From Rhodothermales bacterium (GTDB lineage Bacteria; Bacteroidota; Rhodothermia; Rhodothermales; Bin80), in NCBI GenBank assembly GCA_012271185.1, contig JAAXGV010000096.1, forward strand, positions 1-56,711: DNA of 56,711 nt. Direction: 5' to 3'. How positions within the stretch are numbered: position 1 is the stretch's first letter; the number at the start of each line of letters is the position of its first letter. Of the stretch, positions 3,792 to 19,274 are shown one piece after another. Under the pieces are notes generated by a model. The model searched no databases. It saw nothing but the letters and a program-made list of their open reading frames with translations, and was not told the origin of the DNA. A program made the translations under genes and the position numbers.

Positions 3792-5888
3792 ATGCGTATC
3801 GCGCTTGTTTCGCTGCTGTTCTGCCTCGCAATCCCAGCCCGGGCTCAGGAGGCTGACACAGCCCGATCCTATGCCCTGGAGAGCATCATTGTCACCGCTG
3901 ACCGCTCAGAAAGCATGCTTTCCAGGTCCACGGGCGCTGTGTCTGTCCTTACGGCCGGCGAGCTCCGCCGGCTGCCTGGCGTCGCCAGGCTGGGGGATGC
4001 CCTGAGGCACATGCCGGGGTTCGCCATGCTCAATCTGGACGGACAGGGGTTTGACCCCCAAGCCACGGTACGGGGCTTCTACGGCGGTGGCGAGACCGAA
4101 TACGTCCTGGTTCTCCTGGATGGGCACCCTGTAAATAATATGGAGATGGGTCTGGTCAACTGGAGTCAGATTCCGCTATCAGCCATCGAGTCCATTGAGG
4201 TGGTCCGCGGCGGTGCTTCATCGCTGTACGGGGACGCGGCGGTGGGAGGCGTGCTGAACGTCGTCACCAACAGGCAGGCGGAAAAAGCCGCAGCACAGCT
4301 CTCGCTTTCAGCAGGTTCGTTCGGAACATACCTGGGCGAGGCATCCGCGCACGCTACGGTCAGGGACAGACCCTTCTCAGCGTTTGCCAGCCTGCTGCAG
4401 ACCGAAGGGTTCAGAGAGCATGCTGCGAGAAAGGCCGGCAGCATGGGCGCTTCGCTGGGAGTCCTGGAAGGCGAAACCTACAGGGTGACGCTTTCAGGGC
4501 TGGGACACTGGCGTCAGTACGACATTCCCGGCCCGCTGACACGTGACGAGGCTGGCATGTCACGCACACAGATGTCGCCATTCTTCCGGTTTGACAACGT
4601 GGATGAGCGCACCATGCTGCTGACCCTGGATGGTCGCGGCACGCTGTCTGAATCTTCAGTGCTGCGCGTCTCTGCAAGCAGCGAATGGCGAAGCAGCGAC
4701 ATCGTCCGCACCCTGCCGCTGGCTGCAGCCTTTGCCGACACGAAGGGGCGTGAGGTCAGCACGACACGCTTCTTCGTGTCGGCGCAACTGGCCATGCAAG
4801 GCCTTGCCATAGACACGGACAGACTGACCTTTGGCGCCGAAGGCAGGTTCGGGGCGCTTGATAACGTGTACTACAACATGCTTACCGGCTCGGCGGCTGA
4901 GTATGCGGCGTACGCTGGCGACTGGGGTGAAGTAAGCACATCCGGCCAAGGCGACCGGCAGACCATGGCAGGCTATGCACAGTACCGGCTTGACCCCCTC
5001 CCAAGGCTGCGCATCACGCTGGGTGGGCGCTACGATACCATAAATGACAGCTATACAGCTGCCGAAGGCCAGAAAGTCAGCGCATCGCATACCGCCTTCA
5101 GCCCGAAGGTGGGAGTGAACCTGGCGTTTATCCGCTCCGCCAGACACGTTGGACACGTGTACGCCAACTACCTGGGCATCTTCAAGGCTGCAACGCTGGA
5201 CCAGCTCTACGACCAGCGAATACTGCCGGTGCCATTTCCGCCCTACGGGATCACTATTTCCAACAGCGAGCTGAAGCCGCAGCGCGGCACCTCATACGAG
5301 ATGGGTCTGTACCACCGCGCCGTGATGTCCAGCATACTGGCCGGCGAGCTCACACTGTCTGTCTACCAGGTTGATATGACGGATGAGCTGGATTTCTCCT
5401 TTGAGACGTTCAGCTATGCCAACATCGCCGCCAGCAGGCACTCGGGCCTGGAAAGCGGCCTGCGCCTCTACATCGGTGACCGCGCTACTGCGCACACCAA
5501 CTATACGCTCCAGAACGTCACATACGAGGAGGGCGCCAACAAGGGCAACTTTGTAAAAGGAATCCCCAGAGACTATCTCAACCTGGGTATCAGCGCCAGC
5601 CTGACAAGGGATGTTGCTGTGGGCGTGGTGCTGCATTCCACGGCACGCATATACCTGGATGATGCCAACACGATGCCACTGGACGACTATGTCACACTGG
5701 ATGCGACGCTCTCGTACCGATGGCATCCGGCCCGGAGCGTGATCAAGCTCGAATCACTCAACCTGCTGAACGCATCCTATAGCTCAACAGGCTTTCCGGA
5801 TCCTGACAGCGAGTCCGGCTCCGGCGTCGTATTCCTGTACCCGGCAGCGGGGCGCTCCGTGCGCCTTGGTGTGACGGTAACACTATAG
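3792..5888 (+). CDS. TonB-dependent outer-membrane receptor
   Basis: 698 aa with a signal peptide (MRIALVSLLFCLAIPARAQ) and plug-domain motifs (IIVTADRSE, VVRGGASSLYG). A long beta-barrel region follows. Confidence 0.9.
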   Translation: MRIALVSLLFCLAIPARAQEADTARSYALESIIVTADRSESMLSRSTGAVSVLTAGELRRLPGVARLGDALRHMPGFAMLNLDGQGFDPQATVRGFYGGGETEYVLVLLDGHPVNNMEMGLVNWSQIPLSAIESIEVVRGGASSLYGDAAVGGVLNVVTNRQAEKAAAQLSLSAGSFGTYLGEASAHATVRDRPFSAFASLLQTEGFREHAARKAGSMGASLGVLEGETYRVTLSGLGHWRQYDIPGPLTRDEAGMSRTQMSPFFRFDNVDERTMLLTLDGRGTLSESSVLRVSASSEWRSSDIVRTLPLAAAFADTKGREVSTTRFFVSAQLAMQGLAIDTDRLTFGAEGRFGALDNVYYNMLTGSAAEYAAYAGDWGEVSTSGQGDRQTMAGYAQYRLDPLPRLRITLGGRYDTINDSYTAAEGQKVSASHTAFSPKVGVNLAFIRSARHVGHVYANYLGIFKAATLDQLYDQRILPVPFPPYGITISNSELKPQRGTSYEMGLYHRAVMSSILAGELTLSVYQVDMTDELDFSFETFSYANIAASRHSGLESGLRLYIGDRATAHTNYTLQNVTYEEGANKGNFVKGIPRDYLNLGISASLTRDVAVGVVLHSTARIYLDDANTMPLDDYVTLDATLSYRWHPARSVIKLESLNLLNASYSSTGFPDPDSESGSGVVFLYPAAGRSVRLGVTVTL

Positions 5889-5891
5889 ATC

Positions 5892-6251
5892 ATGGGTACG
5901 CAGGTCCTTGCAGTGCTGAACGGTGTGATGGCGGCAGCTTTTGCGGTGTTCGCCGTTTTGCAGCTCAATGACCCCGATCCCATGTACTGGACCACCTTCT
6001 ATGCGCTGGGATCACTGGCCTGCGTGTTGTTCCATCTGAAGCGGCTACCGTCCGCCGCAGCCGGAAGCTATGCCGCCTTTTGTGGCGTGCTGGCGCTGCT
6101 GTGGACCATCCTGGCGGCTATCGGCCAGACACTGCCCGGCGCAATCCAAGGCATGGCGTATGAGGAAGAAAAAGAGATATCCGGCTTCCTCCTCGTAGGT
6201 GTCTGGATGGCTGTGCTGTATGTTCGCGCCAGGCATTCAGAGAGGTCGTAG
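5892..6251 (+). CDS. small 4-TM membrane protein (TMEM220-like)
   Basis: 119 aa with four hydrophobic helices and a QLNDPDPMYW motif after TM1. It starts 4 nt after the receptor stop. Confidence 0.6.
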   Translation: MGTQVLAVLNGVMAAAFAVFAVLQLNDPDPMYWTTFYALGSLACVLFHLKRLPSAAAGSYAAFCGVLALLWTILAAIGQTLPGAIQGMAYEEEKEISGFLLVGVWMAVLYVRARHSERS

Positions 6252-6255
6252 CATC

Positions 6256-7983
6256 CTACGGAAGCTTCTCGTATAGCACATCGCCCCCAACGATCGTGTA
6301 GAGCACTTCGGCGTTCCGGATCTCCTCTTCGGGCACCGTCAGGATATCGCGGGAGAGCACCACAATGTCCGCAAGCTTGCCAGGCGTGAGCGAACCCTTC
6401 AGGTCCTCTTCAAAGGCGGCGTAGGCATTGTTGATGGTGTAGGATACCAGCGTCTGCTCCCTGGTCAACCGCTGATCCTCGTAGAAGATGGAGCCATCGC
6501 TGAGGCGGCGTGACACTGTGGCATAGAAGCTGGCGATCGGATCAACATCTTCTACCGGTGCATCGGTGCCGTTGGTGACGACTGCACCGGATTGCCAGAG
6601 CTTCTGCCAGACATATGCGCCTTCTTCAGCTCTTTCTTCGCCCAGCCGGCGATACACCCACGGCCCGTCTGATGTGGCGTGTACGCCCTGCATGGAGGCG
6701 ATCACACCCAAGGCGCCAAAACGGGGTATGTCATCGGCGCTAAGGTGCTGGGCATGCTCAATGCGCCAGCGCAGGTCCGAGCCTTCGTCCGTTGTGGCAT
6801 ACGCCCGCTCAAAGATGTCCAGCACCTCGCGGTTTGCTTTGTCACCAATGGCGTGGATGTTCACCTGAAATCCGTGTCGCAGAGCAACCACCGCCGTACG
6901 CGCAATCTCGTCAGAGTCCACGGTCTGCAGGCCGATGCTTTCGGGCTTGTCGCTGTAAGGAGCAAGGAGCCATGCGCCGTGCGATCCCAAGGCACCGTCA
7001 ATGGACCGCTTGACGCTGCGCACAGTAAGGAAGTTGTTGCCATATCCCACCATGCGGTGATCTGCCAGGTTTTCCGCCAGCCTCTCGGAGCTGGAACGGA
7101 TCATCACGTAAAGCCGCACGGGCAGCGCCCCCTCATCGGCGAGCATCCTGTAAAAGCGGACGGTTTCAAAGCCCACACCTGCGTCGTGAAACGACGTGAT
7201 TCCCTTCGACAGGCACTCTTCCGCTGCCAGCCGTGCCTGCTCGCGACGCTCGGCATCCCGTTCTTCCGGTGTCATGCGCGCCCGGCTTTGTGCCAGCGCC
7301 GCTTCAATCAGGCCTGCGGCAGTCTCTCGGAACAGGCCGGTAAGTTCGCCGCGGGCATCACGGATAATCTCGCCACCGCTGGGGTTCGGTGTTTCCGGGC
7401 TGACACCGGCTTCGCGCATCGCAGCCCGGTTGGCGAACGCTGCATGCCCGCTGGCGTGTCCCAGCAGCACAGGATTCTCCGGCGACGCGTCGCTGAGCTC
7501 GTGGTGGGTGGGGACGCCTTCCACAGACCCGACAGGCACGGACTCCCACTTTTCCTGATGCCAGCCGCGTCCGGTGACCCACTCACCAGGCTCAGCTTCT
7601 GCGGCAGCCTCCCGCACCATCTCCACAATCTCATCCCAGCTCTTGACCGCAGTCAGGTCCAGGATGCGCCTGGCTTCGCCCAGCCCCATGTAGTGGCCGT
7701 GGCCTTCGATGAAGCCAGGAACAGCCAGCCGCCCCTCAAGGTCAATGACGCGCGTTTCTGCGCCGATCATGGCGCTGACTTTTTCGGTTGAGCCAACAGC
7801 CACGATGGTGTCGCCAGCGACAGCCAGTGCCTCAGCTGCAGGCATCAGCGAGTCCGCTGTTACGATCTTGCCGTTGATAAGCACGAGCCGCACCTCGGGC
7901 TCCTGTGTGACGGTGCAGCCTGCAACAACGAGCAGGACAAGCACGGTGCTGATGAAGGCCGGCCGGACAGAGAGCATATGCAT
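6256..7983 (-). CDS. amidohydrolase-family metallohydrolase (lipoprotein)
   Basis: 575 aa with a lipobox-like signal (LVVAGCT). Metal-ligand motifs are EGHGHYMG, NIHAIGD and GTDAPVE. Confidence 0.85.
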   Translation of the reverse strand: MHMLSVRPAFISTVLVLLVVAGCTVTQEPEVRLVLINGKIVTADSLMPAAEALAVAGDTIVAVGSTEKVSAMIGAETRVIDLEGRLAVPGFIEGHGHYMGLGEARRILDLTAVKSWDEIVEMVREAAAEAEPGEWVTGRGWHQEKWESVPVGSVEGVPTHHELSDASPENPVLLGHASGHAAFANRAAMREAGVSPETPNPSGGEIIRDARGELTGLFRETAAGLIEAALAQSRARMTPEERDAERREQARLAAEECLSKGITSFHDAGVGFETVRFYRMLADEGALPVRLYVMIRSSSERLAENLADHRMVGYGNNFLTVRSVKRSIDGALGSHGAWLLAPYSDKPESIGLQTVDSDEIARTAVVALRHGFQVNIHAIGDKANREVLDIFERAYATTDEGSDLRWRIEHAQHLSADDIPRFGALGVIASMQGVHATSDGPWVYRRLGEERAEEGAYVWQKLWQSGAVVTNGTDAPVEDVDPIASFYATVSRRLSDGSIFYEDQRLTREQTLVSYTINNAYAAFEEDLKGSLTPGKLADIVVLSRDILTVPEEEIRNAEVLYTIVGGDVLYEKLP

Positions 7984-8087
7984 GGTGATGAAAGGATCTG
8001 GACAGGAATCATGTCAAAGTACGGCATGATCAGGAACAGGGTACAAAGGTTTGTATCTTGGCAGCATAAACGTTTAACGAAATTGCA

Positions 8088-8468
8088 ATGGCAACCTTTC
8101 CAACCGCAACGTTGCACCGCTGGGCAGACATACCCGTTGAGGAGCTCAAAGCAGGCCTGGGGCGACGCCTGATCACGGGCGAGCGCATGATGATAGCGCA
8201 CGTTTATCTGGACAAAGGCAGCGTCGTGCCGTGGCACAGCCATGACAACGAGCAGCTGACCTACCTGCTAAAGGGAGCGCTCCGATTCTTTCTGGGCAGC
8301 CAGGACGCCCCGCAGGAGGTAGTTGTGCATGAAGGCGAGGTTCTGGTGATACCGTCGAACCTGCCGCACAAGGCCGTAGCCGAGGAAGACACGCTGGATG
8401 TGGACATCTTCTGTCCGCCACGCACGGACTGGCTGGACGGCTCGGACGCCTACATCCGCGAGAGTTAA
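8088..8468 (+). CDS. cupin-domain protein
   Basis: 126 aa with cupin motifs (WHSHDNEQLTYLLKG and GEVLVIPSNLPH). Confidence 0.75.
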   Translation: MATFPTATLHRWADIPVEELKAGLGRRLITGERMMIAHVYLDKGSVVPWHSHDNEQLTYLLKGALRFFLGSQDAPQEVVVHEGEVLVIPSNLPHKAVAEEDTLDVDIFCPPRTDWLDGSDAYIRES

Positions 8469-13561: not shown

Positions 13562-14255
13562 CCCGTTTCTTGTGGAGGCTGAAGGCCTTGTAAAGGTTTA
13601 CCGTGACCGCAGCCACGTTCCGGTGCGGGCGCTGGATGGCATCAGCTTTGCCGTAGCGCCAGGGGAGTTCACGGCAATCGCCGGGCCCAGCGGGAGCGGC
13701 AAGACCACGCTGCTTAACCTTATCGGATCACTGGACTCAGCCACGGCAGGAACGATAGTGGTTGCGGGACAGGATCTGAGTCTGCTCAGCCGCAGGGCAC
13801 GGGCTGAGTTCAGGCTGCGCAACCTGGGGTTCATCTTTCAGTCACACAACCTGATTCCGGTCCTTTCGGCTGCTGAAAATGCGGAGTTCAGCTTGCTTCT
13901 TCAGGGCATGCCGGCCAGGGAGCGCCGCCGCCGTGTCCTTGCAGAGTTCAAAGACCTGGGCATTGAGGAGGAGCTCACGCGCCGCCGCCCTGCCAAGCTC
14001 AGTGGCGGGCAGCAACAGCGGGTTGCGGTTGCCCGGGCACTGGTAAGCCGCCCGAAGCTTATCCTGGCCGATGAGCCAACGGCCAGCCTGGACTCCAAGA
14101 CTGGCGCGCGCCTGCTGGACAAGATGCGTGACCTGAACATGCGCACAAGGATCACCTTCTTGTTTTCCACCCATGACCCCATGGTGATCGACCGCGCCCG
14201 CCGCCTTGTCACGTTACGTGACGGCCAGATCGCCAGCGATGAGACGCATGCATGA
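13554..14255 (+). CDS. ABC transporter ATP-binding protein (LolD/MacB-like)
   Basis: Walker A is GPSGSGKTT, the signature motif is LSGGQQQRVAVARAL, and Walker B is LILADEPT. It overlaps the upstream permease by 8 nt. Confidence 0.95.
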   Translation: MPDPFLVEAEGLVKVYRDRSHVPVRALDGISFAVAPGEFTAIAGPSGSGKTTLLNLIGSLDSATAGTIVVAGQDLSLLSRRARAEFRLRNLGFIFQSHNLIPVLSAAENAEFSLLLQGMPARERRRRVLAEFKDLGIEEELTRRRPAKLSGGQQQRVAVARALVSRPKLILADEPTASLDSKTGARLLDKMRDLNMRTRITFLFSTHDPMVIDRARRLVTLRDGQIASDETHA

Positions 14256-15385
14256 TCCGCACTCTCTGGTGTGTTGCCCTTGCCTTGGCGTACACTGTGG
14301 CAGCCTGCGCTCAGCGCCCGTCACTGGAGGTCTTGGGCTATGCCAAAAACCTTGGCATCCGGCTGACCTCTTCTCTGACAGAGAAGGCACATTTCCTTGA
14401 CATCGGCCGGTTCAGGGCCAGAGGCGTGCTGTCTGCTGGCGGACACGTTCGGGCTGAGGTATGGCTGGATACTGAGCTTCTTACCGGCAGCTACCTGCAG
14501 TCTGCGGATTACGCCTATGCGCAGACGTACGGGCGCCCGCGTCCGCTGCACCTCGAATGGACGCTGGGCACCGGCAAAAGCCATGAGGTGCGGCAGCGGC
14601 TGTTCCGGGCCTTTGTGGCCACGGAGTCAGCCAGGGCAACGCTCACGGTAGGGCGGCAGCGCATAGCCTGGGGCTCCGGCTTCGCCTGGAACCCTACGGA
14701 CGTACTGAATCCGTTCAACCCGGGCGCCATCGAGCTAGGCGAGCGGGCCGGTGCGGACGCCGCTCACCTCAGTGTGCCGCTTGGGCCGCTTTCCCGGCTG
14801 GAGCTGGTTGCGGCATATATGGAAGCAGGAGCTCCGAGCAGCTATGCCGTTCGCGCCGGTACAAACTACCGTGCCTATGATGTGACCGCCCTTGCGGGAC
14901 GCTTCAGGCGTGACTGGATGGTTGGCGGCGATTTTGCCGGATACCTGCAGGGCGCGGGTATACGCGGGGAGGCTGCTTACGTGTGGCGGGATGCCGCACT
15001 GAACTTCCTGAGGGCGGTGCTCAACACAGACTACACGTTTGCACGCGGCATCTATGGGCTTGCCGAGCTCTATTACAATGGTCGGGGAAGTGCCCGGAAG
15101 GCTGAGTATGACTTCGCGGATCTTCTGACGGGTGACACCTTCAACCTGGCACAGTGGTATGTAGCCGTCTCCGTGGCTGTGAGCATAACCCCGCTGGTGG
15201 GTGCAGGCCTCTACCAGCTGGCCAACCTGAACGATGGGAGCATGCTGGTGGGCCCATCCATTACATACTCGCTTTCACAGAGCCTGGAAGCCGCTGCTGC
15301 AGCCTATTTCTTTACTGGCACCTCTGGCAGCGAGTATGCCGCGCAGCAGCACGTGTACTTCGTGACGCTCCAGTGGTACTACTAG
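14252..15385 (+). CDS. putative outer-membrane beta-barrel protein
   Basis: 377 aa with a signal peptide, alternating beta-strand pattern and a C-terminal aromatic end (LQWYY). There is a 4-nt overlap with the ATPase gene. Confidence 0.6.
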   Translation: MIRTLWCVALALAYTVAACAQRPSLEVLGYAKNLGIRLTSSLTEKAHFLDIGRFRARGVLSAGGHVRAEVWLDTELLTGSYLQSADYAYAQTYGRPRPLHLEWTLGTGKSHEVRQRLFRAFVATESARATLTVGRQRIAWGSGFAWNPTDVLNPFNPGAIELGERAGADAAHLSVPLGPLSRLELVAAYMEAGAPSSYAVRAGTNYRAYDVTALAGRFRRDWMVGGDFAGYLQGAGIRGEAAYVWRDAALNFLRAVLNTDYTFARGIYGLAELYYNGRGSARKAEYDFADLLTGDTFNLAQWYVAVSVAVSITPLVGAGLYQLANLNDGSMLVGPSITYSLSQSLEAAAAAYFFTGTSGSEYAAQQHVYFVTLQWYY

Positions 15386-15813
15386 TCCGTCAGCGTCGCG
15401 TCCACGCTGATCACTGTACCAGCATACAGCTTGGATATGGGACATCCGGTGCGGACCTCCTTCACCGCGGACTGGAACGCGGTGTCGTCAAGCCCCGGCA
15501 CGCTGGCTGTAACCGTCAGGTCAATGGAACCGATATGAAAACCGCCCGCGGGATCCGGACCCAAATTGACCACCGCGTCAGCGTGCACGTGACTCGGCAC
15601 GTGCCCACCCGAGGACAGCACATGGGACAGCGCCATCGCAAAGCAGCCGGCATGTGCAGCAGCAACCAGGTCTTCCGGGCTGATGCTCACTGCCTCCTCG
15701 AAGCGGGATGCGAAGGTGAAGGGTGATTCAAAGCCTCCCCGCCCTGTCTTCATGGTCCCGTTACCGGACTTGAGGTCGCCGTGCCAAGTGGCTTCCGCAG
15801 TTCTTACTGTCAT
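15382..15813 (-). CDS. OsmC-family peroxiredoxin
   Basis: 143 aa with the OsmC pattern and two conserved Cys contexts (AHAGCFAMAL, RTGCPISK). Confidence 0.85.
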   Translation of the reverse strand: MTVRTAEATWHGDLKSGNGTMKTGRGGFESPFTFASRFEEAVSISPEDLVAAAHAGCFAMALSHVLSSGGHVPSHVHADAVVNLGPDPAGGFHIGSIDLTVTASVPGLDDTAFQSAVKEVRTGCPISKLYAGTVISVDATLTD

Positions 15814-15824
15814 GAGTCTGTGGT

Positions 15825-16250
15825 TTAGAGCGTATAGTGTGTGCCGTTGACGCTGTAGGAGACGGTGATAGAAGCCGTTTTTCCTACGATTTTGGCAACG
15901 GAGCAGTACTTGTTGATGCTCAGGTCTACGGCACGTCGCACCTTGTCCGGGTGCAGGCCACCGGTCAATGTGTAGTGCACGTGAATTTGCGTGAACAGCG
16001 CAGGTGTGCCTTCACGCTCGTATTCGATAGTACAATCGAACCGCTGCAGGTTCTGGCGGCTCTTGCGGAGGATGTCGACGATGTCTATGCCGCTGCAGCC
16101 CCCGATCGCCATTGCGACCGCCTGCATGGGCCCCACACCCTGTCCGCTGCCGCTGGGCGGGTCTGTGTCGAAGTGAAGCTCGTTCCCGGCCTCGTTGGTG
16201 CCAAGGAAGTGATTCTTGTCGTCCAGACGTTTCAGGGTAACCTTTGCCAT
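15825..16250 (-). CDS. OsmC/Ohr-family protein (second paralog)
   Basis: 141 aa with conserved Cys contexts (IGGCSGIDIV, KYCSVAKI). Confidence 0.8.
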   Translation of the reverse strand: MAKVTLKRLDDKNHFLGTNEAGNELHFDTDPPSGSGQGVGPMQAVAMAIGGCSGIDIVDILRKSRQNLQRFDCTIEYEREGTPALFTQIHVHYTLTGGLHPDKVRRAVDLSINKYCSVAKIVGKTASITVSYSVNGTHYTL

Positions 16251-16766
16251 GATCCTGTTATTGCATGATCAGTTTTTAACCCGCGACAGCCCGGAGGGGT
16301 CCTGCTTCGGGCAGCCGCGGATACGTGCGGCTGCCAACCACACCCGCACAGGACGATGTTCTGGCATGGAGCTGTGCACAGTTGAGGAGGACTGCATCAA
16401 CGGCAACACGCAGCCACCGGAAAACCCTGCATCGCGTCCCAAGGCACACAACCTGCGGCCCGATGGCAACTGCTGCAGGTGTAACCTCACTCCGACGTGT
16501 GCTTGGGCAGCATCATATAACCCTTTTTCAGGCTATAATTCCCACGCTGAGGCATCCCTGCGCGAGGGATTTCAGGTCCGCCCGGCTACACCATCAGCGG
16601 CTGTCCGCACCATCACGCACCGCTGCAGTAGCGGGATTTTGTGTCGCAGGGATTGCTGTTGGGAGGAGCAGGACCGCTCTTGTGCCGGCCGTGGCATGAA
16701 GCCCGTTTCCATTCGCCAAAGATGACCAGTGCATCAGGCTGGTTCAGCCGCAAGGGGTGCCAAGCC

Positions 16767-17258
16767 TCAGTTGTTTTTACGGATCTCTATGGCTTTTTCC
16801 ACGATACCCGCAAGGTACTTGGAAATCCAGGCATAGCGCTCCTGGCTGCTACGCCCACCGGGGTTATAGCACTTCACGATACTCCAGAACCGCTGCCCCC
16901 TGAGGGAGAAATGCTTGAACGGATCGTAGCCTTTGGGAGCGATACGTCCGCTGGAGTCCTTTAATCCGTGGATTCGGATACCGGCGACACCCATACCCCT
17001 TTCCCACGACTGACAGATCTCATAGTTGATCCATTTGCGGCCAGCGGTGTTCTTACCAACAAGGACGATTGTGCAGGAGCGTTCTGCGAACTGGCTGTCG
17101 GTCCACCTCCTGATTGCACCACCTCCGCCCTTCGTTATCGCTTCCCAATCGTTGTCTTTTGCCGGCTTGTTTCCTTCAACGGCTCCAATGCTGCGAACCT
17201 GAGCAGCGCGCCAGCTATCCGGTTCGTAGTGGAAGCTGTAGAATACTTTCCGCGCCAG
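16767..17258 (-). CDS. ThsB-like TIR-domain protein (DUF1863-type), non-ATG start
   Basis: Hand translation of the minus strand gives (L)ARKVFYSFHYEPDSWRAAQVRSIG...CTIVLVGKNTAGRKWINYEICQSWERGMGVAGIRIHGLKDSSGRIAPKGYDPF. This matches the ThsB/DUF1863 pattern (KxVFxSFHY, RxWxxYEI, G(I/V)xIHxLKDxxG...KGxNPF). The frame is open from the TGA at 17277-17279 down to the stop at 16767. The ORF track shows only the C-terminal 75 aa. A CTG at 17256-17258 sits exactly where family members have their Met, and AAGGAGG lies 11 nt upstream. Confidence 0.75.
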   Translation of the reverse strand: MARKVFYSFHYEPDSWRAAQVRSIGAVEGNKPAKDNDWEAITKGGGGAIRRWTDSQFAERSCTIVLVGKNTAGRKWINYEICQSWERGMGVAGIRIHGLKDSSGRIAPKGYDPFKHFSLRGQRFWSIVKCYNPGGRSSQERYAWISKYLAGIVEKAIEIRKNN

Positions 17259-17276
17259 TCTTGTTATGTCCTCCTT

Positions 17277-17669
17277 TCAATTGAAGATGATGGCAATGCC
17301 GACCACGATAAGCATCGCACCGTAGAAGCCTGTAAGTGTTACGGAAAACATTGCACTGGGCCAGGTGCGATCCCGGCGAAACCTGCTTACATCCATGGAG
17401 AAGTCGATCTCATCCTTTTCCAGCACACGAACATGGTCGTAAAGCGTACGGAACAGACGCTCCTGCCACAGAAAGTAGCCGTCTAGACCCCAGAAGATCA
17501 GCACGGGAACCAACGTCACAAGTTCGAACCCAGGATTCCCACCTCTTGTCAGCAGAACAAACAGCGCGGCAGCCAAAGCCATGCTCCAGCTCTTCATGCG
17601 GAATGAATCAGCTCCAAGCCGGTTGACCACTCCTTGGATAAATTCGAGATGCTTGAGCTTTGCCTCCAT
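17277..17669 (-). CDS. small three-helix membrane protein, co-oriented partner of the TIR gene
   Basis: 130 aa from the ATG at 17669 (MEAKLKHLEFIQGVVNRLGADSF...); alternative upstream starts are at 17723 and 17843. Hydrophobic helices are WSMALAAALFVLL, LVTLVPVLIFWGLDGYFLW and FYGAMLIVVGIAIIF. The stop lies 18 nt before the TIR start. Confidence 0.6.
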   Translation of the reverse strand: MEAKLKHLEFIQGVVNRLGADSFRMKSWSMALAAALFVLLTRGGNPGFELVTLVPVLIFWGLDGYFLWQERLFRTLYDHVRVLEKDEIDFSMDVSRFRRDRTWPSAMFSVTLTGFYGAMLIVVGIAIIFN

Positions 17670-18371
17670 TTTGCGTATCGGTCTGGTCCATTCTGCCCGT
17701 AAAGCCAGCGCCCAGTCTCTCATGGAACGCGGTGCCATGCCCACGCAAACACAGCTGGCGGACATGCCACGCATGTGTGTCAACATGCAGAGCAGAAGCG
17801 GGGTTCCTGTCGCGCGACAGCCTGTCCGCTGCGCCGCGCACAACTTACGGGATAAGGGACTGACAACAGGCCGCAGGGTCGCTCAATGCTAATGGTGTTG
17901 AGACGTGCGCGCTCCTGTCACAGTCCTGTGAGCGCAGGTACGAGTGCTACGTGCCAGACCACCACCGCTCCTGATCATGAGCAAGCACGTTTCCATAAAG
18001 TTCGGCGCTATTCTGCTCGCCGGCTTGTGTCCGTGAAATCGGGTTCCTTGGCAAACGGTGGCCCTTGCTCATCGTGTTCGCTGTTTAAAGCCACGATCTC
18101 CGTCTCCCGCCCGATCCAGTGTTCGCCAGTAAAGCAGTTTCGAGCGCTTCAATCCCACAGCAATGGATCCGCTACTGCCGGACAGCGTCAGACGCCTTTC
18201 AACGGGCATGCAATGCGCCGGACCAGCCTGACACATCTGCGGATTCACACGAAGCAGGTGCGCGGGCCCTGCGCCTGTAAAGCGCCAGGACAAATGATTC
18301 GCACCACGCCCTGCGCGAACGCAACCCTATCGGTGTGTCTTTCGTAGAGAGTATGCACTCATAGTCAGTAA

Positions 18372-19274
18372 ATGGCTGGACCAATGCACAGTGTGTTCTC
18401 CCTCCTGATCGTCACCTTCACGGCGCTGGCGGCCGGATCCTTCGCACCGACCGAACGTGACGTGATAAAGAAAGAGTATGCGGTGAGCCCCGGCGGCACA
18501 CTGCACCTGGACCTGGATCGCGGCAACATTGAGGTCGAAGTGACAGAAAAGGCTCGCGTCTTCATTGAAATGGAACGCATAGCCAAGGCCAAAGAAAAGG
18601 AAGAGGCCAAAAGTATCCTGGAACACCATGAGTACGCCTTCGAAAGACGCCACAACGACGTGTATGTGCGCTCGCGCTATGACGCCGACCGCTTCGCATG
18701 GAACCTTCGCAAGCGTCCCAGCCTGAAGATTAACGTGGTCGTGCGCGTCCCTTCCGAATACAACGTTGTGTTCAGCAACGGCGCTGGCAACGTGGAAGTG
18801 TTTGACGTGGTCGGTGATGTCCGGGGCACTACCGGGGCGGGCAACGTAACTTTGGAAAATATTGAAGGCAGGGTGGAGGTTTCGTCAGGGGCTGGCAACC
18901 TTGAGGTGTCTGGAGCAATTGGAGCAGCCGAAGTCAACACTGGCGCCGGCAACATAGCACTCTACGATCTGCAAGGCACGGTGCAAGCCGGTACAGGCGC
19001 CGGCAACATTGATGCAGTGATCGTCCATCAGCCCGAAGGGCATTCAAGGTTCGGCTCCGGCGCCGGCAACGTTACTGTCGCCCTCTCAGACGACATCGGC
19101 GTGTTTGTCCGCGCCACGGCCAACATAGGCTCGGCAAAGTGTGAATTTCCGCTGACGGTATCGAAAAAACTCCTGTCCAAGTCATTCTCCGGCGAGATCA
19201 ACGGCGGTGGCGCCGAGCTGGAGCTGCATGCCGCCGTCGGCAACGTGGTACTGAAACGCCACCGAACAAGGTAA
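18372..19274 (+). CDS. DUF4097-type beta-strand repeat protein
   Basis: 300 aa with an N-terminal hydrophobic anchor. GAGN(V/I/L) repeats recur every 20 aa or so. Confidence 0.75.
   Translation: MAGPMHSVFSLLIVTFTALAAGSFAPTERDVIKKEYAVSPGGTLHLDLDRGNIEVEVTEKARVFIEMERIAKAKEKEEAKSILEHHEYAFERRHNDVYVRSRYDADRFAWNLRKRPSLKINVVVRVPSEYNVVFSNGAGNVEVFDVVGDVRGTTGAGNVTLENIEGRVEVSSGAGNLEVSGAIGAAEVNTGAGNIALYDLQGTVQAGTGAGNIDAVIVHQPEGHSRFGSGAGNVTVALSDDIGVFVRATANIGSAKCEFPLTVSKKLLSKSFSGEINGGGAELELHAAVGNVVLKRHRTR

Follow-up and report, generated by a model that had tools for sequence, protein, structure and literature searches.

Type V Thoeris is an anti-phage system that pairs the TIR protein ThsB with ThsF, an effector with three transmembrane helices labelled DUF2270 (Yirmiya et al., bioRxiv 10.64898/2025.12.03.692087, a preprint of December 2025). 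According to that work, two such systems were validated, one from B. thuringiensis DAR 81934 and one from Bacillus sp. 1NLA3E, and type V provides phage defence in B. subtilis; 3'-cyclic ADP-ribose (3'cADPR) is synthesized upon infection, by ThsB alone. Added 3'cADPR was toxic only to cells carrying the type V system, the 3'cADPR sponge Tad1 weakened the defence, and AlphaFold3 predicted a heptameric ThsF ring with positively charged pockets between protomers. Here we present an analysis of a related gene pair at positions 16,767–17,669 of contig JAAXGV010000096.1 (assembly GCA_012271185.1) from a Rhodothermales bacterium. 'The window' hereafter denotes the whole stretch that was analysed, 56,711 nt in length. 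With a probability of about 0.85, we interpret the locus as an anti-phage operon of the type V Thoeris kind, with thsF preceding thsB; its sensor is most likely strongly under-expressed or very recently inactivated.

Like the validated type V systems, the pair has the organization of a two-gene operon encoding a stand-alone TIR protein and a three-helix membrane effector of about 130–140 residues. It is effector-first, whereas type V copies in Bacillus, and the plasmid copies in Terribacillus and Klebsiella, have the order thsB–thsF. Further differences from the validated systems are the CTG at the start of thsB, a TIR from another cluster (2661146773), an environmental host of high GC content, and surroundings made of housekeeping genes and not of a defence island. 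Type I Thoeris, in which ThsB is paired with the SIR2–SLOG protein ThsA (B. cereus MSX-D12), has the same ThsB-type TIR fold and the same catalytic Glu, but its effector is an NADase; the window lacks a SIR2–SLOG ThsA, and its effector would be a small membrane protein. Type II Thoeris (ThsB with a TM-Macro effector) also couples a TIR protein to a membrane-anchored effector and acts by abortive infection. By contrast, its signal is His-ADPR, and the window effector has no Macro domain: no Pfam domain was found in its 130 residues, which are too few for one. In type VII Thoeris (ThsB with the SLATT effector ThsH), and in cyclic-oligonucleotide-based (CBASS) systems with SLATT effectors, the effector is likewise a small protein with several transmembrane helices that is thought to oligomerize and breach the membrane. 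A TIR signal activates the type VII effector, as it would in our reading of the window; the type VII signal is, however, canonical cADPR, and the window effector gives no match to SLATT profiles.

Relationship of the pair to type V Thoeris

By sequence comparison, the downstream open reading frame (ORF) is a ThsB-type TIR protein, with matches far above chance. It matches Pfam PF08937 (3.7e-22), the PADLOC models ThsB1 (1.2e-59, the best) and PDC-M50B (6.9e-54 over the full length), and the PDB entries 8wcf (1e-29) and 6LHY/9B7D, B. cereus ThsB (6e-16). In a HMMER alignment to 6LHY/9B7D, the Glu in the window motif 'NYEI' falls on that in 'RYEI', residue E85 by a count along the B. cereus sequence. 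This catalytic Glu is present in all 25 aligned TIR relatives, and the window protein matches the family at 54 of the 62 columns that are at least 90% conserved. The TIR assignment and the retained Glu had both been put forward in an earlier note drawn up from the DNA alone (hereafter, the original prediction), and the profile search and alignment bear them out. The nearest of 5.8 billion proteins is just 66% identical to the window ThsB, so no sister allele is available for comparison; a near-identical thsB with an intact ATG was not found in that collection.

The TIR frame is open from 17258 to 16770, over 163 codons, and contains the motifs RKVFYSFHY, CTIVLVG, GRKWINYEI and GIRIHGLKDSSGRIAPKGYDPF. 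It lies on the same strand as thsF, 18 nt away and in the same frame, with the thsF TGA alone separating the two. Because the TIR frame contains no ATG, GTG or TTG ahead of Met-89, gene callers give only the tail of the protein: the ORF list reports its last 75 residues (16994–16767), and the public gene call on an ENA contig (ERZ27298220 k141_95363) that is 100% identical over 9,439 bases, CTG included, is the same 75-residue fragment. Re-reading the sequence reproduced what the original prediction had described, namely a 163-residue minus-strand TIR frame at 17258–16767 of which the ORF track holds 75 residues, a 130-residue membrane ORF 18 nt upstream, and an AAGGAGG in the gap between them (Table 1). 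Two alternative starts were discarded. A 188-residue version of the membrane ORF, beginning at a TTG, is ruled out, as the MEAKLKHLE N terminus is conserved across 32 homologues, which identifies the start of the 130-residue protein as the real one. An ATA at 17267 as a start for thsB is likewise ruled out, being just 2 nt from the Shine–Dalgarno sequence.

The 130-residue product gives full-length matches to four PDC-M50A models of PADLOC, the best at 8.4e-42, and is conserved at all invariant positions of its family; Pfam and NCBIfam gave no match for it. A search with a relative of the membrane protein from Bacillota led to the validated system, by way of contigs that encode a B. cereus-group match. 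On one of these (L088), a 252-residue gene at 2229–2987 is identical at 251 of 251 positions to the validated B. thuringiensis DAR 81934 ThsB. A 141-residue protein (P0122) is encoded 13 nt downstream of it. P0122 aligns to the profile of the window family with a probability of 100% (hhalign, E 4.4e-48), is 44% identical to the window protein and matches the same PDC-M50A models (1.8e-48). Its position beside a ThsB identical to the validated one, together with these profile matches, identifies P0122 as the validated ThsF, and the window protein as its homologue.

Adjacency of the two genes is a recurrent feature of the family. Relatives of the membrane protein numbered 264 in a scan of one genome per species, and the locus counts below are based on 80 loci that were retrieved. 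With the window TIR as a tblastn query, a TIR lies directly downstream of the ThsF homologue in 55 of the 80; with a broader set of TIR queries, a TIR ORF is found within 2.5 kb of thsF in 62. The partners are nearly always directly downstream on the same strand, mostly at a distance of 0–60 nt. Among the TIR domains to which Table S1 of the preprint gives the label 'DUF2270 - Type V', four are 57–63% identical to the window TIR and up to 82% identical to TIRs adjoining thsF in the fetched loci.

PDC denotes a 'phage defence candidate'; these candidates come from Payne et al. (bioRxiv 10.1101/2024.01.29.577857) and are part of PADLOC-DB v2.0.0. PDC-M50 was an untested bioinformatic candidate in this set, and the window pair provides co-located, full-length matches to both its components, PDC-M50A (8.4e-42) and PDC-M50B (6.9e-54). 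Since the validated ThsF matches the same PDC-M50A models, PDC-M50 is type V Thoeris under an earlier name; a search of the full-text literature found no mention of 'PDC-M50'. On these sequence comparisons, the window pair is a divergent member of a system that is already known, catalogued as PDC-M50 and validated as type V. The original prediction had proposed a minimal Thoeris-like module in which the TIR protein makes an NAD-derived signal for a membrane effector. The module agrees with the validated homologues and the conserved synteny, and the PADLOC matches of both genes point the same way; the signalling scheme fits the experiments on type V homologues. The novelty implied at the time did not survive, because the pair is already in PADLOC-DB v2 and now has a name as a Thoeris type.

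Several points weigh against this assignment or against parts of it. The key reference on type V is a preprint, in which signalling by 3'cADPR is defined for the B. thuringiensis system only and the other validated system was not activated by added 3'cADPR. The window TIR belongs to cluster 2661146773, whereas the validated type V ThsB proteins fall into other TIR clusters, and type XI members of cluster 2661146773 made none of the known signals (bioRxiv 10.64898/2025.12.03.692087). For these two reasons, the unresponsive second system and the type XI cluster mates, 3'cADPR is not established as the signal of the window TIR. The window TIR deviates at 8 of the 62 conserved columns, the third highest number among the 25 relatives, which is compatible with some relaxed constraint. 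Its partner has no match to Pfam PF10028 (DUF2270) at E ≤ 10, and the surroundings of the pair are housekeeping in character, with no defence island. Finally, with thsB lacking a canonical start and gene callers finding the 75-residue fragment, the ThsB sensor may not be made at all.

Table 1. Coordinates of the gene pair, its internal features and its neighbours (window positions)
Feature	Position	Strand	Description
thsF	17277..17669	-	130-aa membrane effector, MEAKLKHLEF...IIFN; ATG at 17669, coding 17669-17280, stop TGA 17279-17277
thsB	16767..17258	-	163-codon ThsB-type TIR ORF without canonical start codon; stop 16769-16767
Shine-Dalgarno sequence for thsB	17270..17276	-	AAGGAGG, read from sequence; directly after thsF stop, 11 nt ahead of CTG
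CTG in place of thsB start codon	17256..17258	-	ATG-to-CTG substitution, aligned against relatives
GAG, catalytic Glu codon	17019..17021	-	residue 80 if CTG is codon 1; corresponds to E85 of B. cereus ThsB
Most conserved ThsF stretch	17427..17483	-	residues 63-81, LDGYFLWQERLFRTLYDHVR; cytoplasmic extension of TM2 helix
Two tandem OsmC-family paralogues	15382-15813, 15825-16250	-	Pfam annotation on identical ENA contig; directly downstream of pair
300-aa ORF	18372-19274	+	hydrophobic signal-like N terminus, about seven 'GAGN[VIL]' repeats; no Pfam or PADLOC match at 1e-5
377-aa ORF	14252-15385		neighbouring ORF, no annotation
Fic-domain protein, 488 aa	26165-27631	+	Pfam Fic 1e-16; PADLOC SoFic 7.8e-26 and PDC-S04 models

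The start codon of thsB

In an alignment with 56 related thsB genes, 46 of these have ATG at the start position and 7 have GTG, and the remaining 3 carry an ATG one codon further upstream; CTG is unique to the window among the 57 aligned positions. The junction in the window reads AAGGAGG, 11 nt, CTG-GCG-CGG-AAA-GTA-TTC-TAC-AGC-TTC-CAC-TA; that of close relatives reads AAGGAG, 6–9 nt, ATG-GCN-CGN-AGA-GTN-TTC-TAC-AGC-TTC-CAC-TA. The start codon is the sole lesion in the 492 nt of thsB, which contain no stop and no frameshift. The most economical explanation is a single A-to-C change that strongly lowers or abolishes ThsB synthesis and is either recent or tolerated. With the ribosome-binding site, the catalytic Glu and all 163 codons of the frame preserved, the most likely state is a strongly under-expressed or very recently inactivated sensor and not a long-dead remnant. 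The closest relative at the DNA level, a Terriglobia metagenome-assembled genome (L012), matches the window over 297 nt of thsF only, at 86% identity, and is thus of no use for dating the change.

Alternatively, the pair may be a decaying remnant, with thsB a pseudogene, only thsF or neither gene functional, and the cassette in the process of being lost among housekeeping genes. We hold this to be a serious possibility, at somewhat less than even odds. The missing start codon and the eight deviations at conserved TIR columns are in line with it, as are the approximately 500 nt of apparently non-coding DNA on either side of the pair. Related metagenome-assembled genomes also often have a decayed thsB next to an intact thsF, and thsF stands without a TIR nearby in 16 of 78 loci. 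The sequence of the pair itself argues otherwise: a single lesion in 492 nt, with no stop or frameshift in the frame, and a thsF that has kept every invariant position.

At the other extreme, the operon could be fully functional, with the CTG, the strong AAGGAGG and translational coupling to the stop of thsF, 18 nt away, together initiating enough ThsB for normal defence; the non-canonical start would then serve to limit the amount of an enzyme that consumes NAD and could be toxic. Retention of the 163-codon frame, the catalytic Glu and the Shine–Dalgarno sequence favours such an arrangement, as does the fact that clearly dead copies elsewhere (L035, L036, L072 and L062) carry stops, frameshifts or insertions instead. 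We nevertheless give it slightly less weight than the decaying remnant. None of the 56 relatives has a start other than ATG or GTG at this position, so the CTG is not a conserved regulatory feature, and the 11-nt spacer is longer than the 6–9 nt of the relatives. Moreover, CTG initiates in E. coli at about 0.1–1% of the level of ATG, which speaks against sufficient synthesis.

There is also a slight chance that an error in assembly or sequencing produced the CTG and that the true genome has an ATG. The difference is one base and the source is a metagenome assembly, but the ENA contig agrees at every one of the 9,439 bases, the CTG among them, although it may stem from the same reads. A strongly under-expressed or very recently inactivated sensor in a type V operon remains our preferred reading of the locus.

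The ThsF family, its TIR partners and the proposed mechanism

Structure prediction was run with database proteins as input. The AlphaFold2 model of the membrane protein (pLDDT, a per-residue confidence score, 89.8) has helices at residues 2–43, 48–81 and 110–129. It gives a predicted topology in which an amphipathic N-terminal helix runs into the first transmembrane helix (2–43), the second transmembrane helix continues into a conserved cytoplasmic helix (48–81), and the third spans residues 110–129, in agreement with the amphipathic helix and three hydrophobic helices that had been read from the sequence. In the family alignment, W60, L62, D63, Y65, F66, L67, Q69, E70, R71, R74 and Y77 are invariant and form part of an almost invariant segment, FWGLDGYFLWQERLFRxLYDxVR. 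By analogy with the AlphaFold3 description of ThsF in the preprint, residues 63–81 are a candidate ligand-binding or oligomer-interface segment. Foldseek of the model against the PDB returned nothing significant (best E 0.94), and the family profile found no match among PDB sequences.

The family is very large. A profile search of the 5.8-billion-protein collection yielded more than 7,400 ThsF clusters at 90% identity, all of them without annotation, and its members are spread across many phyla, including archaea and sponge-symbiont lineages. The original prediction had likened the membrane protein to SLATT effectors. This likeness was not upheld: at E ≤ 10, no SLATT profile (Pfam SLATT_1-6 or SLATT_fungal) was among the matches of the window protein or of 82 relatives, 32 in one scan and 50 in another, and SLATT membership of the window protein was rejected after three Pfam scans at that threshold. 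The DUF2270 label of the preprint could not be reproduced either. At threshold, Pfam DUF2270 membership is found neither for the window protein nor for the validated ThsF, P0122 (no PF10028 match at E ≤ 0.1), and PF10028 appears below threshold in 3 of 50 family members (best E 0.0088). PF24838, the '8xMP, octameric membrane protein family', gave weak matches in 3 of 50 ThsF relatives (best 8e-4). We treat the DUF2270 mismatch as a matter of labelling that does not count against homology to ThsF.

The TIR proteins encoded beside thsF are diverse and span at least four subfamilies, some of them TIR_2-type. As one ThsF family pairs with several TIR subfamilies, ThsF appears to be a common effector served by interchangeable TIR sensors. 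In one locus (L068, about 5600–6850), thsF lies between two TIR genes, a 1NLA3E-type TIR that ends 4 nt ahead of it and another TIR 46 nt downstream. Sixteen of the 80 fetched loci (for example L003, L004, L006, L024 and L080) have a thsF homologue but lack a recognizable TIR over a distance of 2.5 kb; genes beside these homologues encode, among others, a 5-hmdU DNA kinase-like protein, a ParA-like ATPase and helicases. Such homologues may act as orphan effectors or may respond to TIRs from other sites.

Decayed copies of thsB beside an intact thsF were observed in several related metagenome-assembled loci (L035, L036, L072 and L062, at about 6400–8250 in each). That of L035 has an in-frame stop and a truncation, that of L036 a disrupted C-terminal half, and that of L072 multiple stops and frameshifts. 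In L062, an insertion of about 1.3 kb parts thsF from thsB. Conjugative plasmids of enterobacteria commonly carry the thsB–thsF pair (40 plasmid records from Klebsiella and 18 from Escherichia), and on Klebsiella plasmid NZ_AP022022.1 (L083) it adjoins DNA methylase and DUF1380 genes in a position that resembles the plasmid leading region. The validated B. thuringiensis system adjoins a Gabija-like pair, an OLD-TOPRIM ATPase and a UvrD helicase (L088, 3495–6426), and lies near a DAC-domain protein.

By homology to the validated systems, phage infection would switch on ThsB, a small stand-alone TIR enzyme, which would then convert NAD+ into a cyclic ADP-ribose-type signal (3'cADPR in the one type V system with a defined signal). 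The signal would bind ThsF, an inner-membrane protein with three helices for which a ring-shaped homo-oligomer with positive pockets between protomers is predicted, and ThsF would breach the membrane, thereby aborting the infection. For the window, we infer the identity of the signal made by this TIR subfamily, the oligomerization and pore action of ThsF, and the level of expression from the CTG. A more far-reaching version of this scheme, in which the ThsB subfamily makes an NAD-derived molecule other than those described so far, sensed by the divergent ThsF, and/or the CTG is a working low-expression setting, seems to us rather improbable.

The roles might also be reversed, with the TIR protein as an NAD+-depleting effector and the membrane protein as its sensor or anchor. 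The preprint warns that the TIR might be the effector in unverified configurations (bioRxiv 10.64898/2025.12.03.692087), and the subfamily of the window TIR lacks a defined signal. For type V, however, the direction has been tested: ThsB alone makes 3'cADPR on infection, the toxicity of 3'cADPR depends on the system, and Tad1 weakens the defence. The association of the same ThsF family with at least four TIR subfamilies is, furthermore, what would be expected if exchangeable sensors served a common effector, and we consider the reversal very unlikely. Read-through or recoding of the thsF TGA, yielding a single ThsF–ThsB fusion protein, has a negligible chance of being correct: the TIR frame lacks its own start codon and is in phase with thsF, but the relative frame varies among relatives (0, 1 or 2) with many pairs overlapping by at least 4 nt, three transmembrane helices and a cytoplasmic N terminus would place a C-terminal TIR outside the cell, away from NAD+, and the other window genes scanned give full-length Pfam matches with TGA as a stop.

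Genomic setting and significance

The pair is flanked on one side by the two OsmC paralogues and a MacB-type ABC transporter, and on the other by the 300-residue repeat protein and genes of fatty-acid oxidation (FadB, thiolase and ACAD). The Fic/SoFic-like gene, 9 kb from the pair, is the sole defence-like neighbour (Table 1). The ten flanking ORFs scanned include no SIR2, SLOG, Macro or nuclease partner and no ThsA, and no second TIR or second ThsF copy was found within the window. The flanks (16251–16766 and 17670–18371) contain no gene remnants and no match to Rfam, which covers tRNA models, and show no similarity to genes adjoining the pair elsewhere. The original prediction, which had noted both the missing partner and the non-coding appearance of the flanks, was correct on these counts. 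No convincing direct or inverted repeats that would mark a mobile element flank the pair, and its gene strand has no sigma-70-like promoter and no convincing terminator. GC content falls to 0.53–0.55 over the pair (16800–17800), compared with 0.58–0.62 in the surrounding 10 kb, which is compatible with horizontal acquisition as a small cassette.

For biology at large the locus matters little, given that its system type is already catalogued as PDC-M50 and validated as type V Thoeris. It does illustrate a blind spot. With thsB called as a 75-residue fragment only, PADLOC run on called genes would probably miss the window locus, and more generally, routine gene calling followed by DefenseFinder or PADLOC misses Thoeris loci in which the thsB start is non-canonical or mutated. 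Counts of Thoeris systems in metagenomes are thus underestimates. ThsF itself emerges as a very large family outside Pfam annotation and offers raw material on how effectors and sensors are exchanged or lost in Thoeris. Its conserved FWGLDGYFLWQERLFRxLYDxVR segment is an obvious target for mutagenesis of the ligand pocket or gating region of ThsF.

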